From the NCBI GenBank assembly GCA_045568435.1, contig JBJLBB010000001.1, forward strand, positions 492,413 to 556,412: DNA of 64,000 nucleotides. Reading direction: 5' to 3'. Source of the DNA: Candidatus Poseidoniaceae archaeon. GTDB taxonomy: Archaea > Thermoplasmatota > Poseidoniia > Poseidoniales > Poseidoniaceae. Below are positions 7,301-22,244 of this stretch, one piece after another. Both the position numbers and the translations under genes were made by a program. The first letter of the stretch is position 1. Each line of letters starts with the position of its first letter. The notes below the pieces were generated by a model. That model was not told the origin of the DNA. It worked only from the letters and a program-made list of their open reading frames with translations, and did not search any database.

Positions 7301-8987
7301 TTCCAACAAGTTCGCCTGTGGAGGAATCCAGCGTCACACCGTTGGGGAGTGTACCACTGATGACCGTCCATGAATCTGCGACTCCACCAATGTTGGTTGG
7401 CGTTGCTAAATTCACAGTACTGTTCTTGGTGAACGTGAATGGTGAGCCGGCATACGAAATATCAGGGGCTTCGAGGACCATGAGCGTAAAGGTCTCTGAT
7501 GTAGTGGTGCCAAAGGCAGTCACTGTGACCGTGTGAGTAGTATTAGCGTGGCCTTCAGTAGGTGTTCCCGAGATAGTTCCGTTGCGCCAGTTCATGGTCA
7601 AACCGTCTGGAAGTTCAGGTGATACCTCGAAAATCGGATTAGTCGCTAGACCTTGACCCGTGCCTTGGTGCGATGTTAACCGCAACTCTATTGATGGAGT
7701 AGATCTCGAATGAGCGACGAATAAATCGTCATTATCGTCAATATCAATTCCAATTGTCCAACCTGCATCATCAATTTGGGTGGCAGTTGACCACGTACCA
7801 GAAATGTAATTTGTATACATCAGCTTCTTTGGTTGTCCAACGTGATAAACAGCATGCAAATTATCGTTAGAATCAACGGCAATTGCTGGGTAAAAAGCAG
7901 GAGTCCCAAGCGAGTGCCCTGCCCAGTTGCCCAGTGTTCCTGAATATACATGAGAATAAGTATCGGCAGCACCAATAATATGAATCACATCCTGTGAGTC
8001 TATCACCATATCGAGATTCTTACCAGAGTTAGAACTTAAACCCGGTATAGTTTCATTTTGCCAAATGCCATTTATGCGACTAGAAATTTTTATTTCAAGA
8101 GGATTGCTATGATAAACTGAATGTATATTGCCATCACCGTCGATTACAACTTTGGGGCTATATCCATCATCTTCCACAGTGTTTGAAATTGTGTTATCAA
8201 TCCAGGTTCCAGTTTCATCGGTGTAATGAACTAGGTTGTGATTTGTGCCATCATGTGCTGTAGCAACTACATGGATTGCTCCAGTAGTTGGATGTAAAGT
8301 AATTGCAGTTCCTGTTATCCCTTCGGGACCGGAATACACTACTGCTGACCCCAACTGAACAACATCCCATGTGCCTGATGAATTTGTGAGATATTCAACC
8401 ATTTGACTCGTTTCATTGATGTAAGCAATGTGTAATGCTCCTTGAGAATCAATAACTAAAGATGGAAGAAAACCTGTATCTGCACCATTGTCTTGGAATA
8501 CATTATCTGAAATTATACCTTCAAATTGGTAACTTAATGCCAATGTACCAGTATTATCTGAATCGGTAAAACCGTAGGCAACTGCAACTTCTCCCTGATT
8601 GTCAGTATCAATAGCCACGTCGTAAGTAATGAGTCTGTTGCCGATCAGTAATTCAGTAGTATTTTCGACTCCAGAGACCCAAGGGTTCACGGGATGAGTA
8701 TGAGTATAGGACATGGTAATGTCTGAGATAGCACTACCTGCGTTCGCTTCCGTTGAGATTGTGTCGATAATGAGCGAACCACCTGAAGCATTCACATTGA
8801 CGATGAGGCTGACCGGAAAGACCGCTGCCTGCTCGCATTCGAGGGAGTAATGGTGAGCGTCGTGTTGCCTAGACGTCGTAGGGGTTACCAGAAAGCACAC
8901 ATGTGTTGCTAAGCGAAAGGCCAGGTGGTAGTCCTGTGTGGCCGCATGAAGTCGGTGCACCGAAGCCAGAGTCAAAGGTTGGAACAA
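1305..8987 (-). CDS. Giant cell-surface protein gene 1, C-terminal 2560-aa portion. Contains Asp-box/BNR-like propeller units, about 24 He_PIG-type Ig-like domains (about 10 near-identical tandem copies), a TSP3-like Ca-binding Asp-repeat region, one TM helix, and a conserved cytoplasmic tail (beta-rich domain, E/K/A-rich helix, C-terminal HhH module). The N-terminal about 40 residues of this ORF are out-of-frame read-through; the true upstream continuation is ORF 8869..11862 via a frameshift near 8875.
   Basis: About 24 occurrences of the LPxGLxFxxxTGxIxGTPT motif. Repeated ITVQDEAADISYAxSPFTFTKN...FTVWANNSADDISTT units. DSDGDGMPD/DTDGDGICD-type repeats. TM helix WGYICFPIIILLLLLIFVLFF. C-terminal ...DDLQEIKGIGPFIAEKLNALGIYNFEQVGNMT...FFPGRVKRDQWAKQARELHDNKK. 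Confidence 0.85.
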   Translation of the reverse strand: MFQPLTLASVHRLHAATQDYHLAFRLATHVCFLVTPTTSRQHDAHHYSLECEQAAVFPVSLIVNVNASGGSLIIDTISTEANAGSAISDITMSYTHTHPVNPWVSGVENTTELLIGNRLITYDVAIDTDNQGEVAVAYGFTDSDNTGTLALSYQFEGIISDNVFQDNGADTGFLPSLVIDSQGALHIAYINETSQMVEYLTNSSGTWDVVQLGSAVVYSGPEGITGTAITLHPTTGAIHVVATAHDGTNHNLVHYTDETGTWIDNTISNTVEDDGYSPKVVIDGDGNIHSVYHSNPLEIKISSRINGIWQNETIPGLSSNSGKNLDMVIDSQDVIHIIGAADTYSHVYSGTLGNWAGHSLGTPAFYPAIAVDSNDNLHAVYHVGQPKKLMYTNYISGTWSTATQIDDAGWTIGIDIDDNDDLFVAHSRSTPSIELRLTSHQGTGQGLATNPIFEVSPELPDGLTMNWRNGTISGTPTEGHANTTHTVTVTAFGTTTSETFTLMVLEAPDISYAGSPFTFTKNSTVNLATPTNIGGVADSWTVISGTLPNGVTLDSSTGELVGTPTAVSTVHSIVIQATNPAGSGFTTIQITVQDEAPDISYPGSPFLWTKGTHTINAPSNFGGSSTSYSVTSGTLPAGIFLPPGSGYLIGTPTAVYATASVTITATNSAGSSSTTVSITVQDEAPDISYAGSPFTFTKNTEVVGETPTNAGGAVSTWEIHPAASTLPSGLLFGPSNGTIYGTPTAVTSTATFTVWANNSADDVSTTISITVQDEAADISYANSPFTFTKNDPVSGETPTNSGGVPDGWEITPDISISIPGLSFNPANGVITGTPTAVTSAVMFTVWANNSADDISTTISITVQDEAADISYAGSPFTFTKNDPVSGETPTNVGGAVSTWEIYPVLSSSIPGLSFNPANGVITGTPTGIHSAIIFTVWANNSADDISTTISITVQDEAPDISYLQSSYMFTKNSAISGVTLTNTGGAPTGTPLFVRDGALPTGIQFNDMTGEIYGIPYATWSSTFTVWANNSAGSNSTTITINVQDEAADISYANSPFTFTKNTEVVGETPTNAGGAVSTWAIHPAASTLPSGLLFGPSNGTIYGTPTAVTSAVTFTVWANNSADDISTTISITVQDEAADISYAGSPFTFTKNDPVSGETPTNVGGVVSTWEIYPVLSSSIPGLSFNSGNGVITGTPTGIHSAITFTVWANNSADDISTTITISVRDEAPSSISYPGSPYTFTKNSIVNAAAPTYTDGAPTSWSIDSYDDLPAGIEFDNTTGEITGTPTAVTATVTFTVWGNNSAGDISTTIEMTVDDIAPAFTYPSLEVELTNNSATSFSPISTGGTITSWEFVGTEPNGLNFGPGNGTIWGTPIDVQSKTQYLIWGNNSGGQLSVYLNITISDVPVVFSYAADNYNLTRAEPMATPISPVSNGIVETWEIEPELTGTGLSFDSATGEISGTPIINMTRTQYTVWANNTGGNVSQNFNITINEPRVGLDYSRENEIFVTGTTITPLHPTVTGGMVETWEYEGVLPNGLFFTNGVFTGTPIDVTSQTMLTVWANNTGGAINHTLNFTVNAPGVELDYDPDSSVITIGQPMTALTPIITNGTVADVDIWSIYPELDNGLSFGTSNGTIWGTPTSIQPIQLYKIWANNTGGNSSHDINITILDIVPEISYSLVSVQMTNDTVSSDLPLNPTNLGGPVVTWSITPELSSGLMFDVLTGEISGTPDEVKASEIYTVSATNTGGTDTTQIEITVLDQVPMIAYVPLDEVLLNNSSVLNMVPESTGGAIAQWSITPEPSAGLFFDTSTGILSGTATEIKVRTEYEITATNDVGSMSVKVNVTVEDLDYDLSIGPIYLLINEEMLSIGPTSTLSDSVYEISPDLPDGMFIGASNGTIWGTPTDDMLLTNFTIYANNSLFNDVMVIQIGVLDDSDSDGMPNQLPLDYNPSGGLVEDLDDDSDGFSDAEEVNCATDPLDANSLITDLDGDSICDELDEDIDGDGLLNDVETNSSTYVDQNNTGTDSSNADSDGDGVCDGPEVPANGGCSVGPDAFPFDSAGSIDSDGDGMPDTLNGESTSTPPLVEDLDDDNDNWSDEMEVNCGTDSSVQNSVPGDEDGDGICDALDTILDLPFTMTYPSDTLTLTLGNEISIQLPTVSGLGEVATWEISSELPAGLIFGWSPARDAHLDGSITGTPTEAMDATQFTIWANNSAHGQSFNITISVLEEVIDLEDEDEGDSQFKWGYICFPIIILLLLLIFVLFFPSDKEVILDAEPENTTSRPKFAEGEGTKDNPFVLKPANDVNPGDTIYSEELITITNITPGLKIQSVDYSVQQGERKFTTEDLTYGNEEVRMFEADEEGVIKFQLIFDDSLEPTLGGGEFQGAIKIGRNSVYLIWDVKVKPDPGYVKQQENLESESKKTNAEAEAKAKSMTEAKAEAKAKAKAEAEAKAKTEAETEKLRAKKLEELERVRARAKTIDFSTLGVATIDEQDDLQEIKGIGPFIAEKLNALGIYNFEQVGNMTSKIEEEVNKAIEFFPGRVKRDQWAKQARELHDNKK
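1611..1690 (-). repeat. Hexanucleotide microsatellite-like tract (GCTTTT/GCTTCT units) encoding the (A/E/K)n helical linker in the cytoplasmic tail of giant gene 1.
   Basis: Direct reading: ...tctgcttctgtttttgcttttgcttctgcttctgcttttgcttttgcttttgcttctgcttttgcttctg... encoding AKAEAKAKAKAEAEAKAK on the minus strand. Confidence 0.85.
4500..7520 (-). repeat. Coding tandem repeat array in giant gene 1: about 10 near-identical ~290-300-bp units, each encoding one He_PIG-type Ig-like domain.
   Basis: The protein shows about 10 consecutive ~97-aa units beginning ITVQDEA[AP]DISYAxSPFTFTKN and ending FTVWANNSADDISTTIS, several identical over more than 80 residues. The same peptides recur in multiple plus-strand artefact ORFs (5032..5469, 6463..6675, 6841..7023, 7318..7536). 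Coordinates are approximate. Confidence 0.8.
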
Positions 8988-11862
8988 GCGAACTCATCGG
9001 CACATTTTGTCCGAGTCGCAGGGTGCTTGAAACCAAGTTTGTCGTGTTATCCCAAGCATGGTTACCTGAAACCGAAACAGGTGCGTGTTGGTCAGTACCG
9101 ATTCCACCATCACCCAACTGCCCATATAGATTCCATCCCCAGCAAGTCATGGAAGCATCGTCAAGGATGACGCAGGTGTGGTATTGTCCCAGAGAAATCG
9201 CAACGGCAGTCCAGCCGGCGGACAGGTTGACGTGAACGGGTGAGGCTTGGTCGGTGTTTGTTGGGCCGTCAAATCCCAATCCCCCTACAATATTCGACCC
9301 CCAACAATAAGTGGATTCGTTGTCAAGGATGGCGCAGGTGTGGTAATCTCCTGCATCAACTGCAACTGCACCCCGACCGGGGGGAAGATCGACGTAAACA
9401 GGAGATAGTTGATTGCTGGTTCCAGCACCGTTGCCCAACTGAGAATTAACATCCTTCCCCCAGCACATCAATGAACGATTGTCAAGAATGGCGCAACTGT
9501 GTTGAAAAGCAGCAACGATTGAAACGGCGGTTCGGCCGGTGGGAAGGTTGACGTAAACAGGTGATACTTGATCACTGCCTCCCGCACCTTCGCCCAACTG
9601 TCCTGAATCGTCCCTTCCCCAGCACATCAGGGAACCGGTGTCAAGAAGAGCACAGGTATGCTGATTTCCAACAGACACCGCAACGGCGGTTCGGCCATAT
9701 GGAAGGTTGACGTAAACAGGTGATTCTTCGTCATCTTTATTCAAATCACCATTACCAAGTTGACCGTCTGCGCCTAAGCCCCAACACATCAAAGAACCAG
9801 TATCAAGAATCGCACAGGAGTGCTTCCCACCCACGCTAAGCCCAACTGCAGACCGGCCGGTGGGAAGGTCGACCAAAACAGGTTCATCTTGGAAGGCGGT
9901 CGTTGTTGCACCGTTGCCCAACTGCCCATTTCCATCACCGCCCCAACACATCACTGAACCGGTGTCAAGAAGAGCACAGGTGTGGAAGTTTCCAGCAGAC
10001 ACTGCAACGGCCTTTTGGCCGGAAGGCAAATTCACCAAAACAGGTTCCTCTTGGGAGACGGTCGTTGTTGCACCGTTGCCCAACTGTCCTACGTGGTCAC
10101 GTCCCCAGCACATCAATGAACCGGTGTCAAGGATGGCGCAGGTGTGTTGAAGTCCAGCTGCCAGCTTGTTGTTGACGTATTCCAAAGATTGGAAATTACT
10201 GCTCCCTGAACCCCAATCATAGGACATCAAAGGTGGTGCGTTGACTGAAATTGTCAGTGTAGTGGTATCTGAACCATGTGCATTGTATGCTGTAATGGTG
10301 TAGACTGCCGATGAAGAGATTTCAGTTGGTGTCCCCGAGATAGTCCCGTCGGCTAAATTCAAACTCAACCCGTTTGGTAGGTCAGGGCTTACTGAATATC
10401 CAAAAGAATCTGTGCCGATGTAACCCAAAGTCTGTCCTGACCAATTGGTGAATGTTATATGTACGCTATCATCAATCTGGTTAACAGCAAGTGAGTTCTC
10501 CCAGCCGACAAATGCTGTGCCTTCTACAAGTGTAACACTCGACCAAGATAATGCAGAAGCACATGATGAAAAGCATTTGGCATACTTTATGTCGTAATTG
10601 GGAAGATTCGTGAAATATGATACATGTATACCATTATTGGAATCAACACCGATAGAGTTGGGGGCACCACCGACATTATCAATGGCCGTAGTCGACCACG
10701 AAGATGCTGATGTACATAATGATGCACACATGCTGTAAAAGGGATTTGCAAGGTCTTGGTCATAGAAGACCATGTGCAATACATCGTTTGAGTCAACGGT
10801 CAAAGAGTGCCATTTAATCGAATCCTCAGGAGCATTTAGGTTTGTAATGGTCCATGAAGAGGCTGTTGTACAGGATAAAGTACAGGTGGCATAATATTGG
10901 TTAGAATTGCCCGAGCCAGTTCCCTGTGTACCCGCACTGCTGTAAACAATGTGTAAATCATTATTAGAATCAATCGTCATCGAGGCATATTCGCCAATAT
11001 CGCCATTATCATCAACAGTAATGCTAGACCATGAAGAGGCTGTTGTGCACAATGAAGTACATGTAGCATATTTTAGAGCCTTATTGGCACTAGAGGAATC
11101 GTAGTAGGAAATGTGTAAGTTATCATTTGAATCAATTGCAATCGAGTTGTATTTTCCTACATCACCTGAGTTGTCAATGATAATACTTGACCATGATGAT
11201 GGAGTTCCACAGGAAGAAGCACAAGAAGAGTACATGAGGTTTTTGACGCCAGTTCCTTCAGGGTTAAGATAACCAAAGTAAGCAATGTGAATTACATTAT
11301 TTGAATCAATAGCAAGGGAGTTGTGGCCGCCAACATCATTAGCAGAAACAAGAGATGTTTCGACCCAAGACCCACTACTATCGGAAATATATTTTAGATT
11401 ACCATTCCCAGAATCATACATAGATATATGGCTATCTCCATTCGAATCAAGAGCAAGTGAGTGAGGATGGGAACCATAGACCTGTAGGTTTGAGAGGGTT
11501 TGAGGTTCAACAGCTCCACCAGAATTTATCGGAGTTATTGGGGTCATGGTTTGGTTGTTGGAAAGATCGAGTGTACTTGAGGAATAGGTAATCGAAGGTG
11601 CGCTTGAGTACATGGGATTGTTTAACTCTTCAAGTTCGCTTTCATCGTCTTCTACAAGCCAAGGGGCTTTGTTCAGTTCCACGAGGCCCACAGAAAGGGA
11701 CATGGAGACCATTAACACGGCAAGAAGGATTGATTTCATGGATTTTAATCCTAAACTACTTCTGGAATTTGCATCATATGTGACACTCATGCTCGCGCTA
11801 ACTACGAACTGCTTATCATAGTTAACCCTATAATTTCCTAAAATGCAGGTTAAATTTAGCAC
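8869..11862 (-). CDS. Giant cell-surface protein gene 1, N-terminal 997-aa portion: signal peptide, Asp-box/BNR-like beta-propeller units, about 8 RCC1 repeats. Probable true start is the ATG at 11739 (MKSILLAVLMVSMSLSVGLV...). It ends at a stop created by a 1-nt frameshift; the gene continues in ORF 1305..8987.
   Basis: Signal-peptide-like MKSILLAVLMVSMSLSV after an internal ATG. Repeated G.Y.SxAxDSNxxxHIxY...SSWS units containing SGSW/SGTW (Asp-box-like). Repeated xHTCAILDTGSLMCWGxDxxGQLGNG units (RCC1 signature). The track start at 11862 is GTG. Confidence 0.8.
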   Translation of the reverse strand: MLNLTCILGNYRVNYDKQFVVSASMSVTYDANSRSSLGLKSMKSILLAVLMVSMSLSVGLVELNKAPWLVEDDESELEELNNPMYSSAPSITYSSSTLDLSNNQTMTPITPINSGGAVEPQTLSNLQVYGSHPHSLALDSNGDSHISMYDSGNGNLKYISDSSGSWVETSLVSANDVGGHNSLAIDSNNVIHIAYFGYLNPEGTGVKNLMYSSCASSCGTPSSWSSIIIDNSGDVGKYNSIAIDSNDNLHISYYDSSSANKALKYATCTSLCTTASSWSSITVDDNGDIGEYASMTIDSNNDLHIVYSSAGTQGTGSGNSNQYYATCTLSCTTASSWTITNLNAPEDSIKWHSLTVDSNDVLHMVFYDQDLANPFYSMCASLCTSASSWSTTAIDNVGGAPNSIGVDSNNGIHVSYFTNLPNYDIKYAKCFSSCASALSWSSVTLVEGTAFVGWENSLAVNQIDDSVHITFTNWSGQTLGYIGTDSFGYSVSPDLPNGLSLNLADGTISGTPTEISSSAVYTITAYNAHGSDTTTLTISVNAPPLMSYDWGSGSSNFQSLEYVNNKLAAGLQHTCAILDTGSLMCWGRDHVGQLGNGATTTVSQEEPVLVNLPSGQKAVAVSAGNFHTCALLDTGSVMCWGGDGNGQLGNGATTTAFQDEPVLVDLPTGRSAVGLSVGGKHSCAILDTGSLMCWGLGADGQLGNGDLNKDDEESPVYVNLPYGRTAVAVSVGNQHTCALLDTGSLMCWGRDDSGQLGEGAGGSDQVSPVYVNLPTGRTAVSIVAAFQHSCAILDNRSLMCWGKDVNSQLGNGAGTSNQLSPVYVDLPPGRGAVAVDAGDYHTCAILDNESTYCWGSNIVGGLGFDGPTNTDQASPVHVNLSAGWTAVAISLGQYHTCVILDDASMTCWGWNLYGQLGDGGIGTDQHAPVSVSGNHAWDNTTNLVSSTLRLGQNVPMSSLVPTFDSGFGAPTSCGHTGLPPGLSLSNTCVLSGNPYDV

Positions 11863-12069: not shown

Positions 12070-12813
12070 TTATGAATTAGATGTTTGTTCAGCCCACGAA
12101 TTGATAATGATACTCTCTGCATTTTGCAAATGTTCAGCAACTGTTCCTTGCTTTACACCTAAAGCATCGGCGATATCATTTTGGTTACAGGTCCGAGGAG
12201 CGTCATAGTAGCCCATTTTGACCGCGGTTTTAATTGCCAAATTACGCTTGTTAGGTAGTTTAGGAGCAGACATCCAATCACCGATAATAAGTTTGGAAAT
12301 CCGCATCTCCATTCTCTCGGGAATCAATAATTCTAATTTATCTTTGATTCTTTTCAACCCTTTAGGTGTGCCATGTATGGTCATAAGAAATCCGTTCTCT
12401 CTGGAAAGCGAGGTCGGCGGCATAATCCATGCCTCTTCCTCAGCCCCAATTATCCGCTGAATTGGTCCAGGTGTTTTCGCCTTCAGGTAGGCAAAATTAT
12501 CACCTTCTTGGAGAATTTTATCGATGATTAAACTATCTTTTAGATTATCCTTTATCGCCAATATATCAATTCCATCATGTTCGACTTTTACAATACAGTT
12601 AGGGATAGAATCAATCACACCAGTGCCGGTAACTAATTCTAATTTATTGAAGTAATCAGTAATCACATTACCGGGTAAATGCTTAGCGTTTTCATATGAA
12701 ATAAGTATCTGGAAATACCTCATGTCTCCGCTCGCTTTCACCCCGCCCATGGGCACACTCATCAATCTACACGATTTATGGCTTTGCTTCCGTGACACGA
12801 TATGAATTCCCAA
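12070..12813 (-). CDS. Bat-type HTH_10 family transcriptional regulator: uncharacterised N-terminal domain plus C-terminal HTH_10. Track start at 12813 is TTG; the ATG at 12762 (MSVPMGG...) is a more likely start.
   Basis: C-terminal ...KTAVKMGYYDAPRTCNQNDIADALGVKQGTVAEHLQNAES... matches the GYYDxPR...LAeeLGisqsTvsEHLrrAE signature of the bacterio-opsin-activator-type HTH (PF04967). It is a paralogue of CDS 27062..27724 over its whole length. Confidence 0.65.
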   Translation of the reverse strand: MGIHIVSRKQSHKSCRLMSVPMGGVKASGDMRYFQILISYENAKHLPGNVITDYFNKLELVTGTGVIDSIPNCIVKVEHDGIDILAIKDNLKDSLIIDKILQEGDNFAYLKAKTPGPIQRIIGAEEEAWIMPPTSLSRENGFLMTIHGTPKGLKRIKDKLELLIPERMEMRISKLIIGDWMSAPKLPNKRNLAIKTAVKMGYYDAPRTCNQNDIADALGVKQGTVAEHLQNAESIIINSWAEQTSNS

Positions 12814-12920: not shown

Positions 12921-15900
12921 TCACTTTTTGTTATCGTGTAATTCTCTGGCTTGCTTAGCCCACTGGTCTCGCTTAACACGGCCTGGGAAGAACTCGATTG
13001 CTTTGTTGACTTCTTCTTCGATCTTAGACGTCATATTACCAACTTGTTCAAAGGTGTAGATACCAAGAGCATACAGTTTCTCAGCGATAAAAGGACCAAT
13101 TCCCTTGATGGTTTGCAGGTCATCTTTCTCATCAATAGTTGCCACACCAAGTGTTGCAAAGTCAATAGTTTCGGCCTTCTTAGCAATACGCTCCAACTCT
13201 TCAGCCTGCTTGAGAGCTTTTTCGTCCAATTTGACATCTTCACCAAGTAGAATCTTGGCTTGATTTACCCATTGGTCTCGCTTGACTCGTCCTGGGAAGA
13301 ACTCGATAGCCTCGTTGACTTGAGTCTCCAGTTTAGCAGTCATGTTAGCAATTTGTCGATAGGTTGTGATACCTAAGGCATTCAACTTCTCTTCGATAAA
13401 CGGACCGATTCCCTTGATTACCTGCAAATCATCCTTTACCATTACAACTGAAGCTTTACCAAATACTCTGGTTATTCCACCAACACCGGTTAAAGTATTG
13501 CCGTCTTTACCAGTCCAAGTGATTATTGTCGAGCCCTTGTCATCGGTAATTGCGGCACTTCCAGCATCAGCAAACTCCTTAGCATTAGCAACTTCCAATG
13601 TCTTAGCACCCTTCTTGACTTCACTTTTCAGTTTGGTCGAAGATGCTGTTCCTAGTACCTTGAAGTCAATGGTCTTCGCACGTGATTTAACACGCTCAAT
13701 TTCCTCTTCCTTCTTGGCTTCTTTAGTGGTTGCTGGTTTCTTCTTTGCTGCTGCTTTCTTGGCCTTTTCTGCATCAGCCTTAGCCTTCTTTTCTGCCTCT
13801 TCGGCTTCCTTCTTGGCTTTGGCTTCTGCTTCAGCGGCTGCTGCTGCATCTGCTTCTTTCTTGGCTTTCGCTTCTGCCTCTTTGGTAGCCTTAGCATCTG
13901 CTTCTTCCTTAGCCTTCTTCTCAGCCTCTTCGGCTTCTTTCTTGGCTTTCTTGTCAGCAGCGGCTTCCTTCTTAGCCTTGGCTTCAGCAGCCTTGGCATC
14001 TTTTTCTGCCTTCTTTTGAGCCTTCTCTTCAGCCTCTGCTATTGCGACTGCTGCTAGAGCTTCTTCCTCAGCCTTCTTGGCTGCTTCAGCCTCTTCCTCC
14101 TCAAGTCGAGCCTTCTCTTCAGCCTCTGCTGCAGCGGTTTCTTCGGCTTCCTTCTCAGCCTTCTTTTCTGCTTCTTTGGCCTCCTTAGCGGCTTGCTTTT
14201 CAGCCTCTGCTGCTTCCTTCTTAGATTGCTTTTCGGCTTCTTTCTCAGCCTTCTTACGCTCTGCTTCGAGTTTCTTTTGTTCCTTGACATAATCTGGGTC
14301 TGGTTTGACCTTGATATCCCACATGAAGTAGACAGACCTTCGTCCTACCTTGACTGCACCTTGGAATTCTCCACCAGCAAGTGTTGGTTTGAAACTATCA
14401 TCAAACAATAATCGGAATTTCATTACTCCATCATCATCAGCGACTATCATTCGAGTTCCTTCTTCACTTCCTGAATCATCTTGCATCAGGAATCTACGCT
14501 CGTTCTCGCGGTCAAAGTAGTCTTGAGACTTAACCTTCAAACCCGGAGTAATATCAGTAATTGTAATCAATTCTTTACTGACTACAACCGAACCAGGCTT
14601 AACTGTCTTGAGTGGTTTCAAGATGAATGGATTATCCTTAGTACCGACACCATCTGTAAACTTCGGCTTTGAAGTTGTATTTTCTGGTTCAGCATCATCA
14701 ACTAATGCAATTACTCTATCCCTTAGAAGGAATATAGGTATCAGTAGAAGTAGCAGTAATAAGAAGCAAAGTGGGAAACACCACCAAGCCATTCCTTCAT
14801 CATCCTCATTATCACCATCGCCTTGTAGTTGGTCACAAATATCACCATCTGTATTTTCTGGACTCGATGAATTATCATATGGATTAGACCCACAATCAAT
14901 TTCATCTTGGTCAAAGAAACCATCATTATCATCATCATGGTCTACAGTGATATTTCCTGTATAATTAGCAGGCAGACTATCTGGTAAAGAGTCATTATCG
15001 GTATCATTGAAAACGGTAATTGATAGAATAAATGAATGTTGATAATTACTATTGTTAGCCCAAACGGTAACATTAACTGGCTCTTCGGAGTAATTTGTAG
15101 GTGTACCTCTAATTCCACCATCGAGCATTGCATCTCTTGCTGGGCTCCAGCCAAATGTCAATCCTTCAGGGATTTCTCCATCGATTTCCCATGAAGCAAC
15201 TTCGCCTATTCCAGTAACGTTTGGTAAGAAATCAACCATTGTCTTGTTGACAAATAGGTCGACATATTGAGATTCATAAGTCATATTGAAATCAAGGTCA
15301 ATAATGTCATCTAATGCATCACAAATTCCATCCCCATCCATATCTGGAAGGAGATTGACAACCTTTGGATCAGTTCCGCACATTTCCTCAGTCAAGTCAA
15401 CAATGGTATCATTATCGTCATCTAAGTCTTCGATTAGACCTGTTGTTGAATTTCCATTGAGCTCATCAGGCATACCATCCCCGTCAGTATCAAGCGATGC
15501 TGCTGGGTCGTTAGGGAACGCGTCTGGGCCAGCGACACAAATTGCTACATCAGGAGTTGCAGGTCCGTCACAAACTCCGTCACCATCGGTGTCAGGGTTT
15601 GCAGGGTCTGTACCTGTATCTGAAGTTGAATTGTATATTCCAGTCTCGGTTTCAAAGATATTATCGATTCCATCACCGTCTTTGTCATCATCAAGTGCAT
15701 CACAAATTCCGTCACCGTCCATGTCACTAGGAACATCAGTTGCATTTAGTGGGTCAGACAAACAATCGTTCTCTAGGGTGTCTAGGAAACCATCGTTATC
15801 ATCATCATCATCTGCAATTAGACCACCATCACCATCAGGGTCATCGTCTGGGAAGGCGTCACCATCGGTGTTAACCGGCAGTGCTGGGTCAAGAGGATGT

Positions 15901-18900
15901 GAGTCAGGACCAGCGTAGCATACGCCGTCAACTGCATCAGGACCGTCACAGAATCCATCACCATCGGTGTCTGGATTGAGTGAATCAGTACCATTGGTTG
16001 CTTCATCAACATCCGGCATACCATCAGCGTCATCATCCAAATCTTCGATTAAATCAAATGGTGGCAAGCCAGTATCTGGATAATCATCCGGCAACTGGTC
16101 AGGCATACCATCTCCGTCGGTGTCTTCCAAAATCTCAAGCCAGAAAGTAGATTCTACACTTCTTGGCTCAGAAGTATTAGCCCAGAGAGTGAATGTGGTA
16201 TTGTCCATGGTCTCAAGTGGTGTTCCACTAATTATTCCGGTGTTGACATCTAAAGTCAAACCTGCAGGTAAGTCAGGAGATACTGCCCAAATAGCGCCAG
16301 GAACGGCGTTAGCAGGAGGTAGTGGAATCATCTCAGTATTATTGACAAGTACAGTTGGGCCAAGTGGACCGGTTCCAACTGGGTTGGAGTCAGGACCAGC
16401 GATACAAATTGGTAAGACCGAATTTGGACCATCACAAATACCATCATCATCGGTATCTGGGTCAAGTGGGTCTGTTCCCATATCACCAGAACCATTGAAT
16501 ATTCCAGTTCCAGTTTCAGCGACATCAGATGCCCCATCGCCATCATCATCCAAGTCTTCAACCAAGTCAAATGGTGCTTCACCAATTGTTGGATAATCAT
16601 CTGGTAATTCGTTTGGCAGACCGTCTCCGTCAGTATCTTCCAACACTTGCATGTTGAATGACCAACTCGAAGTGAAACCATCTGCAGTTACATTAGCAAA
16701 TAGCGTGTATGTGATATTATCTGTGACTTCTGTTGGTGTTCCAGAGATTACTCCAGTAACTGGATCTATTACGATTCCAGCAGGTAGTGCTGGATGAACT
16801 TCGTAAACCGCATCATCAACATCATACTTAGGCATCAAGTAGGTCATTGGTGTATTGTTGAGTAAGTATGCTGTACCATCAATTGCCGTACCAAGTTCAG
16901 TATCTGGACCTGCTACACAGATTGGTAATACGTCAATTGGACCATCACAAATACCGTCGTTATCGGTATCTGGGTCAAGTGGGTCGGTACCAGTATCTGT
17001 GTCGCCATTGTAGATTCCAGTATTGGTTTCGTTAACGTCCTCAATACCGTCACCATCATCGTCCAAGTCCTCAACAAGAGGAGGCACGCTGTTGGATGGT
17101 GGATTCAGAGTATCTGGGTCACCATCACCGTCAGTATCAGTATCAGCCGATGGGTCAAGTGGGAAAGCATCTGGACCAGCAACACAGTCTGGCTCAAAGG
17201 CAACTGGACCATCACACATACCGTCACCATCAGTGTCCGGATTAGTTGGGTCGGTACCATCTTCTGCTTCATCAACATCAGAGTTACCGTCATTATCATC
17301 ATCCATATCCTCAATCAAGCCAGGTGAGTCAGGATTGGTTGGGTCGTAATCATCTGGCAGCTCATTTGGCATACCATCGCCGTCACTGTCCTCAAGAATC
17401 TCAATTGTGAAATCCCAAGACAGCGAAGTTCCGTCAGTGTGGTTAGACCAGACAGTGAATGTTGTGTTAGTCAAGGTTTCAGTTGGCATACCGGTAATAT
17501 CACCAGTGTTTGGATCGATTGACAAACTCGCCGGTAGGTCAGGTGAAATCTCGAAAGTTCCACCAGGCACTACCAAGTAAGGTGCAAGGTCGTTGATGGC
17601 AGTATTGTTGACTCCAACCAAGGTTGGTGGTGGTGTGTTACCATTTGGTGATGGGTCAGGACCGGCAATACAAATTGGTGGTACTGCATTTGGACCATCA
17701 CAAATTCCATCATCATCAGTGTCAGGGTCAAGTGGGTCAGTTCCAGTATCTTGTCCATTGATGTAGATGCCAGTATCAGTCTCAACGGTGTCAAGTAAGC
17801 CATCTCCGTCATCATCATCATCAGCAATCAAGCCGGAAGTAGGTGGATTGGCTGGGTTGTAGGCTGGTGGCAAGTCATTTGCCAGGCCATCGCCATCAGT
17901 ATCGAGTAGACTTTCAAGACTGAAAGTAAAGGTTTCAGTTGCGCCACTACTATGGGTTGCAGTAACGGTAAATGTATCACTCATTGGACTGTCAACCGTA
18001 CCGGTAATCTCACCAGTTGCACTATCTTGCAATAGAGTGTTTGGCAAAGTTGGTGAAATGCTCCATGTGGTTGTGCCATCCCAGAATGCAGGATGGAAGC
18101 CGATTGCATCAATCGGTTGGTCTTCCACTACAGTGTGTGGATAAGCATTGTCCACGCTGAAGTACAATTCGTGCGTGGTCGAATAACCGCTTTGGTTGGC
18201 GTAAATAGTGTAGGTTTGATTGGTCGCATAGACCGAAGGTGTGCCGCTAATCGTACCGCCTGAGATACTCATACCTGCAGGTAGTGGTGGTTCGGTCTCC
18301 CATGATACTGGTGGAGTGTAATTTGAGTAAGTAATCACTGAAGGTTGATATCCAGCAACTCTTGGGTATGGGCAATTTGGACTTCCTTGCCCAGTTTCCG
18401 ACCACCGAGTTCCAATATCATAATACAGAACATCATCAATTACAAATGAAAAGCGCTTACCTGGACTTACACCATAATTAATGATATAACTAGAGCATGA
18501 TGAAGTGGCAGTAGGATGTGTAGGCATATCAGTATAATGATTTGATACAAAATATAGTGACTCGTTTGATATATCATAAGCCCAAAGATGACCATTATTT
18601 GCAGTATAGTAACCCGGACTCCCTCCTTGTTGGAATGAGTTATCGTGTGCATGTCCTGAAAAATAAATAGTATCACCGACAACCAAACTCATTTCACTCC
18701 CCGGGTCGAACCCGGTAAACGGATTACCTGGTAAGTCCGTTATCATCCATGCTGTTTCGTTTGTGGTGTTGTAAGCCCAAAGTTCCTCAGCGTTGCTATC
18801 GTCATCAAAACCAAAATAAATTACATCATTAACTATGAGGCGCATGTTATTAGTGGGAAAGCCACAACCACTATTGTAAAGACACGGGAAATTCGGCACT

Positions 18901-21782
18901 TGCCATGCTGATTCATTTTCAGTATTAATTGCCCAAATTTGTTGGGACATGTGATTTTGACCTGTACCCATTCCTATGTAATTGGTTCCAATTGTATAGA
19001 TAGTTGAACCAATAACTCCAATGTATTGCATTCGATTATAATTCTGATAAGAAAGAGTGTCTGACTGGTCTACATCGGTAACTACCCAATGAGTATAATT
19101 TGATGTATCATAAGCAAAGATTTTTCGATCAGCAAGGTTTGTTCCTGTTGTTGTTATAGCATCGAAGTAAATTGTATCACCTATAACTACACTGAAATCA
19201 TCACCTGGTCTAGAAGATGAAGAAGAACCAGAAGCTGCAATACCTGGATTAATATCAGCGGCTAACCAAGTTGTTTGGTTGGTTGCAGTATATGCCCAGA
19301 GTGCTTCGCTATGAGGATAAGGCCATGATGTATCTTCACGGGCACCAAAATAGAGCGTGTCGCCGACAACTTGCGTCATGTATTGTCCTGGGTATGCACC
19401 ATTTCCATTATCAAAGATATCAGTTACATTCCATGCTGTTCCATTTTGTGGATTAAAGCCCCATATTTCAACATTATTTGCAGTGTCGTTTTTAGCATCA
19501 AAATACAACACTCCATCCATAACTTCTGTAAAATATGCTCCTATCATTGATGCAAATGCAGTCGGATTGATATCTTTAACAAACCAAGTTGTGTTTGTCA
19601 ATATGTCGTGTGCCCATAATTCTCTTCCATGAACCCCATCGTCTGCATCGAATATAATCGTATTATCAATCAAAACTGACATTCTTTCACCTGGTACACT
19701 GTCACCATTGGAATTAATATCTGCTACAAGCCATGACATGCCTGTATCAATGCTATATGCATAGAGTTCATGACCTGCCGAACCACTTGCTACTATTCCA
19801 TCCATGTATATTGTATTACCATGATGTATTGCCATATGTTCTCCGCAATCACAGAATATGTCTTGATTATCCCACCAGATTGAACCATTTCCTGTTACAT
19901 TTACTGGTGCTGTTTGATGTCCATCTTGCGAGGTGTAGGATAGAGAGATTGGGGTCATTGCTTCACCAAGTTGCAGTTCAGCACCATCAACTGTTGAGGT
20001 GATTTCACCAAAAGTAAATGTTGACAACCAAATATCTGCCTCATAGGTAATTCCGTTAATGACGGCGGAGATGGTGTAGGTCGTGTTTACTGAGTCTACT
20101 GTTGGTGTACCGCTGATTGTACATGTTCCAGAATCGATGTTGAGTCCTGTAGGTAGGCTTGGTGAAGCAACACAACTTGTTGCACTGGTGATTGGACTTG
20201 AATATTCGACTCCTGAACCTGAACCACTACCTGAACCACTATCCGGCCCTTGCTGATACAGTGAAACCAAAGTCATTTGTGAGTTTAATTCAAAGCCATG
20301 TAAAATCTCTACATCACCATTTGAATCAACAACTACTGCGGTTTCATAACCATATCCTGTCGTACCGGTTGGCCCTGGATTATTGTATTGTGCGGTTTGC
20401 CAAGACCCAGAAACATCGTTCACATAGAGCAAGTGCCTGGCGTCTTGGAATTGATGTGAAATGTGTATATTATCATCGGTATCAATAAATATCGAGGATA
20501 AAGCTCCGCATGAGTGTGTACCGCTTTGAAAGCCAACTGAGCATGGGAAGGTACTGGAGGAGGTTGATGTCCAAGTCCCTCCAGAATTATTCGAATAGAT
20601 AAGATCGCTGTTGCTTTGATGAACAGAATGGACCACATCTGTAGAATCGATATTCACTGACACGTATCTAGCACCGTAGGAACCAAAGACGGTTGAACCA
20701 ATCTGCGTTGAAACCCAACTTCCACCTTCATTTGTGGTATGGTTCAATCTGTTATTCTGGCCATCACGCATAGTGTAGAGGACATGCGCAGCATCATCCG
20801 AATCAAGAATCAGGTCAAACGATGTATCGGACAAATGATAGCTACTGTAGGTTTGTTGGAGAATTGTTGATGACCATGAGCCACCCGAATTATCCGCTAT
20901 CTCCAATTTTGCAGTTGAACGGCCGCAGTCATATACGTAAGCGATGTATGCATTATTGTTTGAATCAACATCAATTGAGGTTCCACAATGGTAGTTATAG
21001 CCCCAAAAACGAAGGAAATCTGATGCAACAGACGTTGCCCACGAGCCAGCAACATTGTTGGTGTACATGACTTCTTTATTGGTGAAATTAAGATAGGAAA
21101 TGTGGATCTTATCGTTGGAATCTATGACTATGGAAGGGTCATATTGGGATTCTCCTGTCGCTAAAACCTCACTTGACCAAGTTCCTGAAGCGTCATTGGT
21201 GTATATTAGGCTCAACGAATCTGGGTCGAAAAAGACTGCATGGATGACATCATTGGAATCAATATCTGCTTCTAAATCTTGTATTCTTGCGTTTGTTCCA
21301 CCCGCAAAGATCGTTTCAATGGTTCCATTTGCTGGTGGCAATGGAGCGTTAAACGTAATATCGGTCATTACTTCACCGGTCTCAAGGTCAACACCTTCGA
21401 CGCTCGACGTGAGAATAGGGTTTGAAGAGGATAACCAAACACTTGTCTGGAAGGTTGTTCCACTGATTACTGCAGTAATTGTGTAGGTTGTGTTACTGGT
21501 TACTACTGTTGGTGTGCCGCTAATTGTGCACGTGCTGCTGTCGATGTTCAAACCGCTAGGCAACGAAGGTGTTGCAACGCAGGAGGTTGCACCGGCGACA
21601 TTAGTGATCAATCCAGTGCTGGAATCCCAGGTGTTGCTGCCGGAAACCGCATACGGGTGAACCCTGGTCGGTGTTGGCCAACACCATCGCCCAACTGTCC
21701 GTAGCTCGTTCCGTCCCCAGCACTTCATCTCGTTGTTATCAAGAATCACGCAGGTGTGGCCCGACGCCAGCAGAAACCGCAA
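12921..21782 (-). CDS. Giant cell-surface protein gene 2, C-terminal 2953-aa portion. Contains the RCC1 tail, He_PIG Ig-like domains, Asp-box units, ELW-type propeller repeats, 4-5 blocks of TSP3-like Ca-binding Asp repeats, one TM helix, a conserved cytoplasmic beta-rich domain, a long E/K/A-rich helix (about 230 aa) and two tandem C-terminal HhH modules. It begins mid-RCC1-repeat; the true upstream continuation is ORFs 21903..22244 and 22184..25615 via several indels.
   Basis: Starts with ...SGHTCVILDNNEMKCWG (an interior RCC1 unit; track start is TTG). Multiple LPxGLxxDxxTGxISGTPT motifs. Repeated DTDGDGxxD / DPDTDDDGICDGP units. TM helix AWWCFPLCFLLLLLLLIPIFLL. KKAEKEAEEAEKKAK...-type region. 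Two copies of DDLQxIKGIGPFIxEKLxALGIxTxxQxxNMT...EAIEFFPGRVKRDQW. Confidence 0.85.
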   Translation of the reverse strand: MRFLLASGHTCVILDNNEMKCWGRNELRTVGRWCWPTPTRVHPYAVSGSNTWDSSTGLITNVAGATSCVATPSLPSGLNIDSSTCTISGTPTVVTSNTTYTITAVISGTTFQTSVWLSSSNPILTSSVEGVDLETGEVMTDITFNAPLPPANGTIETIFAGGTNARIQDLEADIDSNDVIHAVFFDPDSLSLIYTNDASGTWSSEVLATGESQYDPSIVIDSNDKIHISYLNFTNKEVMYTNNVAGSWATSVASDFLRFWGYNYHCGTSIDVDSNNNAYIAYVYDCGRSTAKLEIADNSGGSWSSTILQQTYSSYHLSDTSFDLILDSDDAAHVLYTMRDGQNNRLNHTTNEGGSWVSTQIGSTVFGSYGARYVSVNIDSTDVVHSVHQSNSDLIYSNNSGGTWTSTSSSTFPCSVGFQSGTHSCGALSSIFIDTDDNIHISHQFQDARHLLYVNDVSGSWQTAQYNNPGPTGTTGYGYETAVVVDSNGDVEILHGFELNSQMTLVSLYQQGPDSGSGSGSGSGVEYSSPITSATSCVASPSLPTGLNIDSGTCTISGTPTVDSVNTTYTISAVINGITYEADIWLSTFTFGEITSTVDGAELQLGEAMTPISLSYTSQDGHQTAPVNVTGNGSIWWDNQDIFCDCGEHMAIHHGNTIYMDGIVASGSAGHELYAYSIDTGMSWLVADINSNGDSVPGERMSVLIDNTIIFDADDGVHGRELWAHDILTNTTWFVKDINPTAFASMIGAYFTEVMDGVLYFDAKNDTANNVEIWGFNPQNGTAWNVTDIFDNGNGAYPGQYMTQVVGDTLYFGAREDTSWPYPHSEALWAYTATNQTTWLAADINPGIAASGSSSSSRPGDDFSVVIGDTIYFDAITTTGTNLADRKIFAYDTSNYTHWVVTDVDQSDTLSYQNYNRMQYIGVIGSTIYTIGTNYIGMGTGQNHMSQQIWAINTENESAWQVPNFPCLYNSGCGFPTNNMRLIVNDVIYFGFDDDSNAEELWAYNTTNETAWMITDLPGNPFTGFDPGSEMSLVVGDTIYFSGHAHDNSFQQGGSPGYYTANNGHLWAYDISNESLYFVSNHYTDMPTHPTATSSCSSYIINYGVSPGKRFSFVIDDVLYYDIGTRWSETGQGSPNCPYPRVAGYQPSVITYSNYTPPVSWETEPPLPAGMSISGGTISGTPSVYATNQTYTIYANQSGYSTTHELYFSVDNAYPHTVVEDQPIDAIGFHPAFWDGTTTWSISPTLPNTLLQDSATGEITGTVDSPMSDTFTVTATHSSGATETFTFSLESLLDTDGDGLANDLPPAYNPANPPTSGLIADDDDDGDGLLDTVETDTGIYINGQDTGTDPLDPDTDDDGICDGPNAVPPICIAGPDPSPNGNTPPPTLVGVNNTAINDLAPYLVVPGGTFEISPDLPASLSIDPNTGDITGMPTETLTNTTFTVWSNHTDGTSLSWDFTIEILEDSDGDGMPNELPDDYDPTNPDSPGLIEDMDDDNDGNSDVDEAEDGTDPTNPDTDGDGMCDGPVAFEPDCVAGPDAFPLDPSADTDTDGDGDPDTLNPPSNSVPPLVEDLDDDGDGIEDVNETNTGIYNGDTDTGTDPLDPDTDNDGICDGPIDVLPICVAGPDTELGTAIDGTAYLLNNTPMTYLMPKYDVDDAVYEVHPALPAGIVIDPVTGVISGTPTEVTDNITYTLFANVTADGFTSSWSFNMQVLEDTDGDGLPNELPDDYPTIGEAPFDLVEDLDDDGDGASDVAETGTGIFNGSGDMGTDPLDPDTDDDGICDGPNSVLPICIAGPDSNPVGTGPLGPTVLVNNTEMIPLPPANAVPGAIWAVSPDLPAGLTLDVNTGIISGTPLETMDNTTFTLWANTSEPRSVESTFWLEILEDTDGDGMPDQLPDDYPDTGLPPFDLIEDLDDDADGMPDVDEATNGTDSLNPDTDGDGFCDGPDAVDGVCYAGPDSHPLDPALPVNTDGDAFPDDDPDGDGGLIADDDDDNDGFLDTLENDCLSDPLNATDVPSDMDGDGICDALDDDKDGDGIDNIFETETGIYNSTSDTGTDPANPDTDGDGVCDGPATPDVAICVAGPDAFPNDPAASLDTDGDGMPDELNGNSTTGLIEDLDDDNDTIVDLTEEMCGTDPKVVNLLPDMDGDGICDALDDIIDLDFNMTYESQYVDLFVNKTMVDFLPNVTGIGEVASWEIDGEIPEGLTFGWSPARDAMLDGGIRGTPTNYSEEPVNVTVWANNSNYQHSFILSITVFNDTDNDSLPDSLPANYTGNITVDHDDDNDGFFDQDEIDCGSNPYDNSSSPENTDGDICDQLQGDGDNEDDEGMAWWCFPLCFLLLLLLLIPIFLLRDRVIALVDDAEPENTTSKPKFTDGVGTKDNPFILKPLKTVKPGSVVVSKELITITDITPGLKVKSQDYFDRENERRFLMQDDSGSEEGTRMIVADDDGVMKFRLLFDDSFKPTLAGGEFQGAVKVGRRSVYFMWDIKVKPDPDYVKEQKKLEAERKKAEKEAEKQSKKEAAEAEKQAAKEAKEAEKKAEKEAEETAAAEAEEKARLEEEEAEAAKKAEEEALAAVAIAEAEEKAQKKAEKDAKAAEAKAKKEAAADKKAKKEAEEAEKKAKEEADAKATKEAEAKAKKEADAAAAAEAEAKAKKEAEEAEKKAKADAEKAKKAAAKKKPATTKEAKKEEEIERVKSRAKTIDFKVLGTASSTKLKSEVKKGAKTLEVANAKEFADAGSAAITDDKGSTIITWTGKDGNTLTGVGGITRVFGKASVVMVKDDLQVIKGIGPFIEEKLNALGITTYRQIANMTAKLETQVNEAIEFFPGRVKRDQWVNQAKILLGEDVKLDEKALKQAEELERIAKKAETIDFATLGVATIDEKDDLQTIKGIGPFIAEKLYALGIYTFEQVGNMTSKIEEEVNKAIEFFPGRVKRDQWAKQARELHDNKK
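13740..14290 (-). repeat. Low-complexity GCT/TCT/CTT-rich tract encoding the about 230-aa E/K/A-rich linker of giant gene 2.
   Basis: Long run of gcttct/ggcttt/cttctt motifs; protein KKAEKEAEEAEKKAKEEADAKATKEAEAKAKKEAD...; antisense artefact ORFs 13366..14019 and 14077..14292 are A/S/F-rich. Confidence 0.8.
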
Positions 21783-21902
21783 CGGCCGTGCGGCCTGTGC
21801 CTAGGTCAATCGCTGTGGAAGGTGCGTTGGTGGCGGTGTTAGTTCCACCATCGCCCAACTCGTCCGTAGATGTCCCGTCCCCAACACTTCAATTCGCCGT
21901 TA

Positions 21903-22244
21903 TCAAGAATGGCGCAGGTGTGGTCCTCTCCAGCAGACACTGCAACGGCAGTGCGGCCGGCACCGAGGTCGACCGCTGTGGAAGAAGGTATGTGTCCAGG
22001 TGTGTCGTGTAATGCCTCCTACCCAATCGCCCCACTGTCCGTACCTGTCATATCCCCAGCACTTCAGGTCGCCGTTGTCAAGAATCGCGCAGGCGTGATA
22101 CGAACCTGCTGAAACCGCAAGCGCAGTTCGGCCTGAACCGAGGTCAATCGGTGTGGAGAGGAGGAGTTGATTCCGCTGGAATGTTAGTGCCGATGGAGGG
22201 GATATACAATGCCCAACTCTCCCGCGAAGTTCTGCCCCCAGCAC
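21903..22244 (-). CDS. Out-of-frame RCC1-repeat fragment of giant gene 2, probably part of one originally continuous reading frame.
   Basis: Contains STPIDLGSGRTALAVSAGSYHACAILDNGDLKCWGYDRYGQ, a canonical RCC1 unit. Its N- and C-terminal ends are read-through garbage in the wrong frame. Confidence 0.6.
   Translation of the reverse strand: MLGAELRGRVGHCISPPSALTFQRNQLLLSTPIDLGSGRTALAVSAGSYHACAILDNGDLKCWGYDRYGQWGDWVGGITRHTWTHTFFHSGRPRCRPHCRCSVCWRGPHLRHS

Follow-up and report, generated by a model that had tools for sequence, protein, structure and literature searches.

The 64,000-nucleotide (nt) stretch of DNA analysed here, referred to below as the window, comes from a Candidatus Poseidoniaceae archaeon (GenBank assembly GCA_045568435.1, contig JBJLBB010000001.1, positions 492,413 to 556,412 of the forward strand) and encodes two giant proteins, gene 2 and gene 1, whose C-terminal tails are the subject of this work. 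The two are paralogous adhesin-like giant surface proteins of Poseidoniales (Marine Group II). He_PIG, TSP3 and RCC1 domains occur in the large N-terminal parts of both; the gene 2 ectodomain carries He_PIG immunoglobulin (Ig)-like repeats (Pfam, 3e-43), Asp-rich calcium-binding-type (TSP3-type) repeats and an RCC1_2 remnant, and Cdd1 is also among the Pfam matches of this protein. One strongly hydrophobic helix lies near the C-terminus of each protein, and common to both is a C-terminal cassette behind this single transmembrane (TM) helix, 600 residues long in gene 2 and 295 in gene 1. Starting at the membrane, the cassette comprises a juxtamembrane (JM) domain, a spacer rich in Glu, Lys and Ala (E/K/A), and one or two helix-hairpin-helix (HhH) modules (Table 1).

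Table 1. Features of the two giant genes, of their tails and of the adjoining reading frames, in window coordinates (ORF, open reading frame).
Feature	Coordinates	Strand	Residues	Description
Gene 2	12921–21782	minus	2953 aa (ORF)	Predicted giant type I surface protein
Gene 2 TM helix	14724–14792	minus	2331–2353	Single helix, MAWWCFPLCFLLLLLLLIPIFLL; RDR directly after
Gene 2 JM domain	14286–14693	minus	2364–2499 (136 aa)	Predicted cytoplasmic Ig-like beta-sandwich; opens with AEPENT
Gene 2 E/K/A spacer	13701–14285	minus	2500–2694 (195 aa)	Evidence: orthologue lengths, charge pattern, AlphaFold2 helix
Module 1, N-terminal helix	13650–13700	minus	2695–2711	IERVKSRAKTIDFKVLG; aligns with its counterparts in module 2 and in the module of gene 1
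Module 1, insertion	13434–13649	minus	2712–2783 (72 aa)	Predicted small all-beta, barrel-like domain; net charge +4
Module 1, HhH core	13239–13433	minus	2784–2848	DDLQVIKGIGPF...FPGRVKRDQW...; 73% identity to module 2 (tblastn); AlphaFold2 helices
Connecting helix	13197–13238	minus	2849–2862 (14 aa)	DVKLDEKALKQAEE; AlphaFold2 helix at model residues 215–233
HhH module 2	12924–13196	minus	2863–2953 (91 aa)	COG3743 / NuoE-C-terminal type; stop codon 12921–12923
Gene 1	1305–8987	minus	2560 aa (ORF)	Paralogue of gene 2, located downstream of it
Gene 1 tail	1305–2255	minus		TM helix 2193–2255 (hydrophobic helix at aa 2245–2265), JM domain 1758–2165, 59-aa E/K/A spacer 1581–1757, HhH module 1308–1580
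Identical 3' block	12921–13053 = 1305–1437	minus		133 nt including the stop codon, 100% identity (exact-match search)
Overlapping ORF	13366–14019	plus		Low-complexity poly-Ala/Ser/Leu or Arg/Lys/Pro-rich translation
Overlapping ORF	13652–13999	minus, other frame		Low-complexity poly-Ala/Ser/Leu or Arg/Lys/Pro-rich translation
HTH_10 regulator gene	12070–12813	minus		Bacterio-opsin-activator type; between gene 1 and gene 2

P0153 and P0164, two relatives that are divergent but complete, have a signal peptide at the N-terminus and, near the C-terminus, the TM helix with an equivalent tail behind it. This arrangement and the RDR directly behind the gene 2 TM helix argue for a type I topology, from which we infer that the gene 2 tail lies in the cytoplasm. 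A sorting signal of the PEP-CTERM or PGF-CTERM/archaeosortase type was considered and rejected, as a long tail follows the TM helix and AEPENT stands after rather than before it. The anatomy of the tail given in Table 1 is, in our judgment, very probably right.

The HhH modules close both tails. A tblastn search of the whole window (E ≤ 10) found exactly three copies, two in gene 2 (12936–13166 and 13248–13436) and one in gene 1 (1320–1550), each with an E value of 1.5e-29 or better, the next match having E = 1.5. The motif LQxIKGIGPFIxEKLxALGI is present in all three, and AlphaFold2 shows helices there. The whole gene 2 tail scores 32.5 bits on Cdd1 (PF11731), against a gathering score of 25.5. 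Module 1 of gene 2 is set apart by its insertion, which appears in the alignment as a clean 65-column gap in the other modules, between IDFxxLG and DDLQ. AlphaFold2 models the insertion as all-beta (strands at model residues 76–143, pLDDT 80–87), and its Foldseek neighbours are small beta-barrels only, all of them weak (E ≥ 3.8e-3); zero matches were found in NCBIfam, and no family was assigned. By tblastn the insertion is a single copy in the window, and it is 86–90% identical in the orthologous loci L001 and L002.

These measurements bear on an earlier sequence-only reading of the interval 12921–14750, which starts inside the TM helix and includes a folded domain of 136 residues (14286–14693) that the reading did not mention. 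Its tandem HhH modules in gene 2, as opposed to one in gene 1, are borne out by the tblastn copies, and its helix of about 60 residues in gene 1 measures 59. Its remaining figures have to be revised. The E/K/A helix of gene 2, put at about 230 residues, has 195, so that the ratio to gene 1 is 3.3 rather than about four. Of the two reaches that were proposed, the 9 nm of gene 1 holds, and the 35 nm of gene 2 becomes about 29 nm for a straight helix. What had been taken for a degenerate third HhH segment is the insertion in module 1, given two tblastn copies, the 65-column gap and the all-beta model. The spacer DNA, described as simple sequence, has only imperfect repeats, with periods of 6–48 nt, and its changes are indels and duplications of blocks of 11–65 codons.

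The two-module-plus-insertion layout of gene 2 is retained at 86–95% identity in its orthologues, with an inter-module segment of equal length in all of them. The module duplication is therefore old and not strain-specific; the first copy has gained a beta-barrel insertion. Relatives carry between one and three modules. Three are present in P0005, P0007 and P0008; P0006 and P0113 have two insertion-bearing modules split by a second E/K/A tract; in P0115 one module directly follows the JM domain, then comes the tract and then two more modules; and P0159 has two modules without the insertion. A single module stands behind a gene-2-like JM domain in L024 (Ga0066866_10000865, tail from 1783), where the JM domain is 93% identical to that of gene 2, the spacer has 126 residues and the insertion is missing. 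This module is like module 1 in its N-terminal helix and like module 2 in its core; L024 may be a deletion through recombination between the modules, or the ancestral state. At their 3' ends, gene 1 and gene 2 share the 133-nt block of Table 1, while just upstream of it their identity is about 77–80%; for orthologues in another genome the identity over the block is only 83–93%. This pattern points to a recent gene conversion of the paralogue 3' ends, or to an assembly chimera.

The spacer that separates these modules from the JM domain is charged and rich in Ala. In gene 2, Ala accounts for 34% of it and Lys and Glu for 27% each, its net charge is -3, and its 195 residues include one Pro and no Gly (0.5% Gly plus Pro), 2.6% LIVMFWY and almost no Arg. 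Both of its ends are conserved, the C-terminal end being the hinge KKKPATTKEAKKEEE (13701–13745). The arrangement of the charges was compared with 2000 shuffles of identical composition. Only i/i+4 shows more opposite-charge pairs than the shuffles do, with 51 opposite versus 18 like pairs in gene 2 (z = 4.06) and a z of 2.14 for the gene 1 spacer, and the shuffle test found no opposite-charge excess at i+1, +2, +3 or +7. In the AlphaFold2 models a helix runs straight on from the JM domain with pLDDT of 76–85, and the distal 40 residues of the spacer are helical with pLDDT of about 50, with a break at the Pro hinge KKKPATT.

Alternatively, the tract could be a polyampholyte that acts as a flexible linker, in the manner of an entropic spacer or bristle. 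Its length would then be almost neutral, drifting as repeats are gained and lost, and would need only to suffice. The low complexity and variable length of the tract (17 to 236 residues in the family) would fit this, as would the pLDDT of about 50 for the isolated stretch and the piece of non-E/K/A sequence that interrupts the tract in four relatives. A random polyampholyte, however, is not expected to show pairing specific to i/i+4, and the 34% Ala with nearly no Gly or Pro, the helix in both AlphaFold2 models and the EAAAK-type peptides of similar composition, which are classic stable monomeric helices, all speak for helical structure. In addition, gene-1-type spacers are held at 51–59 residues over 12 loci, which argues for a length constraint within each paralogue. 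We regard the flexible linker as improbable. An oligomerization stalk, in which two or three spacers of an oligomeric surface protein would wind into a coiled coil, is more improbable still. Module-bearing homologues do often match the Crescentin rod, Filament and CENP-F families of Pfam, and Ala-rich helices can pack as "alacoils". Such Pfam matches on charged low-complexity sequence are commonly compositional, however, and in the best heptad register of the gene 2 spacer LIVMFYW occupy 3.6% of the a/d positions, Ala 31% and charged residues 60%. With no hydrophobic seam along the heptads, a conventional coiled coil is excluded.

The preferred interpretation, that the spacer forms a single alpha-helix (SAH), is in our view likely, as judged from its sequence and the models. 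It would be SAH-like in its working rather than a canonical ER/K member: at 58% charged residues and 34% Ala (49% and 25% in gene 1), the tract is Ala-rich and only partly charged and is thus closer to the EAAAK type than to ER/K helices. Monomeric helicity in solution and the nanometre distances would follow from this assignment. The choice of a single helix over disorder agrees with the sequence-only reading, which had also called for coiled-coil and SAH predictors to be compared; the heptad analysis speaks against the coiled coil.

Related tails were read in frame, and the start of the first module was located in each to define the length of the spacer. Spacers of the gene-2 type, that is with two modules and the insertion, range from 85 to 236 residues across 19 independent Poseidoniales loci and proteins: 195 (the window), 180, 183, 137, 208, 171, 209, 151, 154, 236, 102 and 160 in contigs, about 141 and 203 in two long-read contigs, and 138, 172, 85, 118 and 113 in database proteins. 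Spacers of the gene-1 type have 51–59 residues (12 loci), and those of other single-module classes 17 and about 126. Everything downstream is of fixed length: in complete gene-2-type tails with locatable motifs, IDF1–GIG1 is 86 and IDF1–IDF2 is 168 residues. Alignment of the closest orthologues places the differences inside the spacer, as block indels of 5–65 residues between conserved ends. In the closest pair compared, L007 and L025, the JM DNA is 97.5% and the module DNA 93.8% identical, and the spacers have 171 and 236 residues. The linker length, which the sequence-only reading had suggested might vary between strains, is thus not invariant among genomes even where the flanking DNA is 97.5% identical.

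The mechanism of these changes can be read from the DNA. The extra block of L025 is a tandem duplication of 195 nt whose copies are 87% alike according to Tandem Repeats Finder (TRF), and the L014 spacer contains five 33-nt units. The spacer DNA of the window is of low complexity, with 75% purine on the coding strand, and its best TRF repeats are a 33-nt unit in 3.2 copies (70% matches) and a 48-nt unit in 2.4 copies (77% matches). Simple sequence of the microsatellite type was rejected, as TRF shows imperfect repeats only. Given the block indels and the tandem block duplications, the spacer changes by duplication and deletion of blocks and not by microsatellite slippage. Spacer length evolves fast, through tandem duplication and deletion of imperfect repeat blocks of 33 to 195 nt.

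Assembly artefacts, such as collapsed or expanded repeats and chimeric joins, could in principle generate both the length differences and the 133-nt identity. Many database proteins begin or stop inside the tract, where contigs break, the long-read contigs L001 and L002 are frameshifted in it, and the L008 tract contains a run of N. Set against this, ten independent short-read assemblies have complete, in-frame two-module tails with conserved ends and differing internal lengths, L005 and L007 are also in frame up to their contig ends, and L029 matches the gene 1 tail of the window exactly. The two copies of the 195-nt block in L025 have diverged; since they are only 87% alike, the block is not a collapsed or expanded perfect repeat. 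More generally the repeats are imperfect (66–87% matches), so that reads can be placed on them uniquely. We therefore think it very unlikely that artefacts account for these observations.

Several further features of the tract were observed. In some spacers the 11-residue (33-nt) unit KEAKAAEEKAA recurs as near-perfect repeats in 5–7 copies (L014 766–929, L015, P0055 and P0128), and a 33-nt period is detectable in the window too (14139–14242) and in L025. Since 11 residues correspond to three helical turns, the charge pattern stays in register when a unit is gained or lost. The non-E/K/A piece noted above is a conserved element of about 45 residues near the start of the spacer in the gene-2-type relatives L010, L026, L027 (tail residues ~150–195) and P0042, KKEDKELYEKAKVVAEATGRSVESTFEDLKDDGVVNLSNETDE, and may be a small extra domain or a binding site inside the stalk. 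The two ORFs that overlap the tract (Table 1) were rejected as genes, being compositional by-products of GAA/AAG/GCN repeats. The same Arg-rich frame occurs in long-read assemblies as frameshift products of gene callers (P0001, P0007).

The modules themselves belong to a large and widespread family. Only two strong matches were found among the PDB sequences, 8yy9_O (query residues 15–87, E = 6.9e-12) and 9wqv_a (E = 1.9e-10), which are protein-O (Urf1) of the RC-LH1 complex (reaction center–light-harvesting 1) of Dinoroseobacter shibae and its Rhodovulum counterpart. Local matches in NCBIfam (2e-16 to 2e-8) fall on the C-terminal regions of the NuoE, S2, L21 and PhaH models. The module is accordingly a COG3743 family member of about 65–75 residues, matched in both its N-terminal HhH half and its C-terminal FPGRxxRDxWxxQA half, and, as in those carriers, it is a C-terminal appendage, here predicted to be cytoplasmic, joined by a linker (here of 59 and 195 residues) to an unrelated carrier. 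An exhaustive HMMER search (E ≤ 1e-3) places 7659 representative clusters at 50% identity in this family. A TM-like segment is present in 65% of 142 representatives; it mostly sits at the N-terminus, with basic residues after it, and long rods, charged or resembling coiled coils, are common among these proteins. The conserved signature is DDLxxIxGIGPxxExxLNxxGI, and a profile of 40 diverse modules retains D15, L17, I20, G22, L31, G35, Q41, R63, W69, Q72 and A73. The nearest solved HhH domains to the first half are RadA N-terminal, NusA acidic repeat (AR), Dpo4 and Pol beta; for the second half, no solved counterpart was found among PDB sequences. Archaeal homologues are annotated by the Joint Genome Institute (JGI) as "predicted flap endonuclease-1-like 5' DNA nuclease", wording that equals the COG3743 helix-3-turn-helix (H3TH) annotation quoted in PMC8686332. 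The PhaC2 of Halomonas sp. O-1 is reported there to carry the same H3TH domain, which is discussed as a possible DNA or nucleoid anchor (PMC8686332). A literature search on COG3743, on the HhH extensions of NuoE and L21 and on the 8YY9 and 9WQV entries found no functional study. An extreme form of the module duplication seen in gene 2 is found in P0131, P0132 and P0133 (2280–3115 residues), which have 20–26 tandem copies with a period of about 112 residues; P0131 has an N-terminal TM helix, and by sequence the three look bacterial rather than Poseidoniales.

These elements suggest how the tail may work. The TM anchor and the Ig-like base would hold a semi-rigid helical spacer, followed by a short Pro hinge and the HhH modules, so that the distance between the terminal modules and the membrane's inner face would be roughly 9 nm in gene 1 and as much as 29 nm in gene 2. 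The length of the spacer would be what differs between paralogues and drifts between lineages, while its ends and everything downstream are conserved. The modules, of which one bears a basic beta-barrel in addition, would attach the tail to a ubiquitous cytoplasmic partner, of which nucleic acid at the surface of the nucleoid, bound without regard to sequence in the usual HhH manner, is the first candidate. The protein would then be a tether from envelope to nucleoid in which the length of the spacer sets the reach and the number of modules the avidity. Nucleic acid is favored for the HhH signature, for the history of the annotation, and for the precedent of nucleoid-tethered polyhydroxyalkanoate (PHA) granules together with the phasin model in the family. 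That the ligand is nucleic acid we hold tentatively, at less than an even chance, and we likewise infer rather than observe that length sets reach. The reading as a whole, a cytoplasmic tether with a variable SAH-type spacer and modules probably on nucleic acid, we put at a probability of about 0.5.

The principal alternative concerns the partner. The modules might dock on proteins or on one another, as the acidic HhH domains of NusA and the HhH2 dimerization domains of ERCC1/XPF do, in which case the giant surface proteins would be gathered into clusters by their tails or linked through them to a protein scaffold in the cytoplasm, the helix remaining a spacer. The module cores are neutral to acidic, the AR domains of NusA are among the closest solved sequences (E = 5e-3), and the presence of the module on machines as different as NuoE, Urf1, L21, S2 and PhaH also fits a shared partner or self-association; arrays of 20–26 copies would suit multivalent scaffolding. 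Yet both the GIGP hairpin and the Arg/Lys conserved within FPGR(V/I)KRD are what backbone-contacting HhH motifs typically show, and among solved HhH domains the DNA-binding N-terminal domain of RadA comes closest, ahead of Dpo4 and Pol beta. On balance we consider docking rather doubtful.

Several points weigh against the tether to nucleic acid. With a mean net charge of -1.8 over 633 instances (0 to -2 in the window's three copies), the core of the module is slightly acidic on average, an uncommon trait in DNA binders and one that recalls the protein-binding acidic repeats of NusA; the two together favor protein docking or leave it equally open. A lone module scores 22.9–23.5 bits, under the Pfam gathering thresholds, and only its first ~35 residues match the classical HhH models. 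In the cryo-EM structures behind 8yy9_O and 9wqv_a only the N-terminal TM/helical region has been modeled, and the authors term the function of the C-terminal domain, which is compact and lies behind a flexible linker, "obscure" or "unknown" (PMC12079452, PMC13066640). For the spacer, AlphaFold2 confidence is low in isolation, as noted above, and the charged fraction is below the >70% E/K/R typical of textbook ER/K helices. Assembly error may also contribute to some of the differences in length, with contigs often breaking in the tract and long-read assemblies frameshifted there.

The JM domain at the base of the tail occurs in two copies in the window (tblastn), which are 62.5% identical between gene 1 and gene 2, and in 36 Poseidoniales contig loci. 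There were zero matches to Pfam and NCBIfam, and searches of a set of 5.8 billion proteins found just 4 and 10 fragments and gave no family assignment. AlphaFold2, from a shallow alignment of 17 sequences, predicts a nine-strand beta-sandwich (pLDDT 75–88, mean 74.9), and Foldseek returns weak generic Ig-like matches of the PapD/ASH/FW type in the PDB (best E 3.5e-4 to 1e-3, TM-score 0.3–0.5). About ten residues past the TM helix, AEPENT (14676–14693 in gene 2, 2148–2165 in gene 1) is invariant in 20 of 20 aligned JM domains, and more divergent members have a PEPEN variant in its place. It includes an N-x-T sequon despite the expected cytoplasmic location, and could be a processing or recognition site.

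The surroundings of the two genes add some observations. An RCC1-repeat ORF of about 1000–1100 residues precedes each giant ORF (8869–11862 and 22184–25615). The first of these, which shares 119 nt (8869–8987) with gene 1 in a different reading frame, has a signal peptide; the second pair meets across 21782–22184, and the start of gene 2 is a garbled RCC1 blade. Each pair of RCC1 ORF and giant ORF may be one gene of 3500–4100 residues that is split by a frameshift. The frameshift would fall at a matching point in both pairs and could be a sequencing error, mark a pseudogene or be a case of recoding. In L001 and L002, the syntenic long-read loci, tblastn gives no match to the HTH_10 regulator gene, and we therefore leave it outside the system, its association being not conserved. 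Rfam and tRNA scans of the whole window were empty.

Comparison with known systems places the individual parts. The COG3743 modules at the C-termini of NuoE, Urf1, L21, S2 and PhaH share with ours the pattern DDLxxIxGIGPxxExxLNxxGIxxFxQ...FPGR(I/V)xRDxWxxQA and the position as a linker-joined cytoplasmic appendage, and Urf1, which is protein-O in the Dinoroseobacter shibae RC-LH1 and protein-3h in Rhodovulum sulfidophilum, is likewise membrane-anchored. The carrier here differs in being an archaeal giant type I surface protein, with a duplicated module, one copy of which has the beta-barrel insertion, and with a long, predicted rigid helix in place of a "long flexible loop". With the ER/K helices of myosin VI/X, INCENP, drebrin and the KER of CAF-1, and with designed EAAAK/AEEEXXX helices, the spacer shares its charge, a poverty of hydrophobic residues, i/i+4 pairing and a position between functional parts. 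It is archaeal and membrane-anchored, with more Ala, less charge and almost no Arg; its helicity is predicted, and its 195 residues (up to 236 in relatives) would be long for an SAH. TolA offers a parallel in architecture, with a membrane anchor, a long helical periplasm-spanning stalk rich in Ala, Lys, Glu and Asp (domain II) that sets the reach, and a globular binding domain. The likeness extends to composition and architecture only, since TolA works in the periplasm rather than the cytoplasm, its terminal domain is different and homology was not detected. PhaM, PhaF and ComEA each fasten something large, in the form of a PHA granule or of incoming DNA, to a surface by means of a non-specific DNA-binding appendage. 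The appendages of PhaM and PhaF are histone-H1-like tails of Lys/Ala/Pro and not the COG3743 module, and the membrane-anchored HhH of ComEA lies outside the cytoplasmic membrane, whereas the gene 2 tail, a putative DNA binder, would be inside. The module family itself includes the phasin PhaH model (NCBIfam) and PhaC2 of Halomonas sp. O-1 (PMC8686332). SAHs have been described as semi-flexible spacers and constant-force springs (PMC4183817, PMC5378345, PMC5347031).

The locus thus reveals a conserved modular cytoplasmic cassette whose evolving parts are the length of a helix and the number of modules. An SAH-like spacer, HhH modules and a giant adhesin are each elements of a known kind; the combination of an Ig-like domain, a length-variable helix and COG3743 modules in the tail of an archaeal giant surface protein is not described in the literature or the family libraries that we searched. 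Marine Group II archaea, which are uncultured, rank among the most abundant archaea in the plankton of the surface ocean, and their giant surface proteins are assumed to mediate attachment to particles. A broader idea, that the COG3743 module is a general "nucleoid hook" of bacteria and archaea, we consider unlikely. Such a hook would tie machines that are large and cytoplasmic or embedded in the membrane to the surface of the chromosome, among them complex I, RC-LH1 (by way of Urf1), ribosomes, PHA granules and giant adhesins. Were it true, the adhesive coat of Poseidoniales would be mechanically coupled to the nucleoid through a length-tunable single-alpha-helix spring, a prokaryotic analogue of the LINC-type (linker of nucleoskeleton and cytoskeleton) bridge between envelope and chromatin in which spacer length and module number are evolvable. 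The natural series, with spacers of 17 to 236 residues and from 1 to about 25 module copies, is a ready-made "molecular ruler" experiment. The main value of the locus is as an entry to a very large uncharacterized family of modules, in which identifying what a single module binds would account for thousands of proteins.

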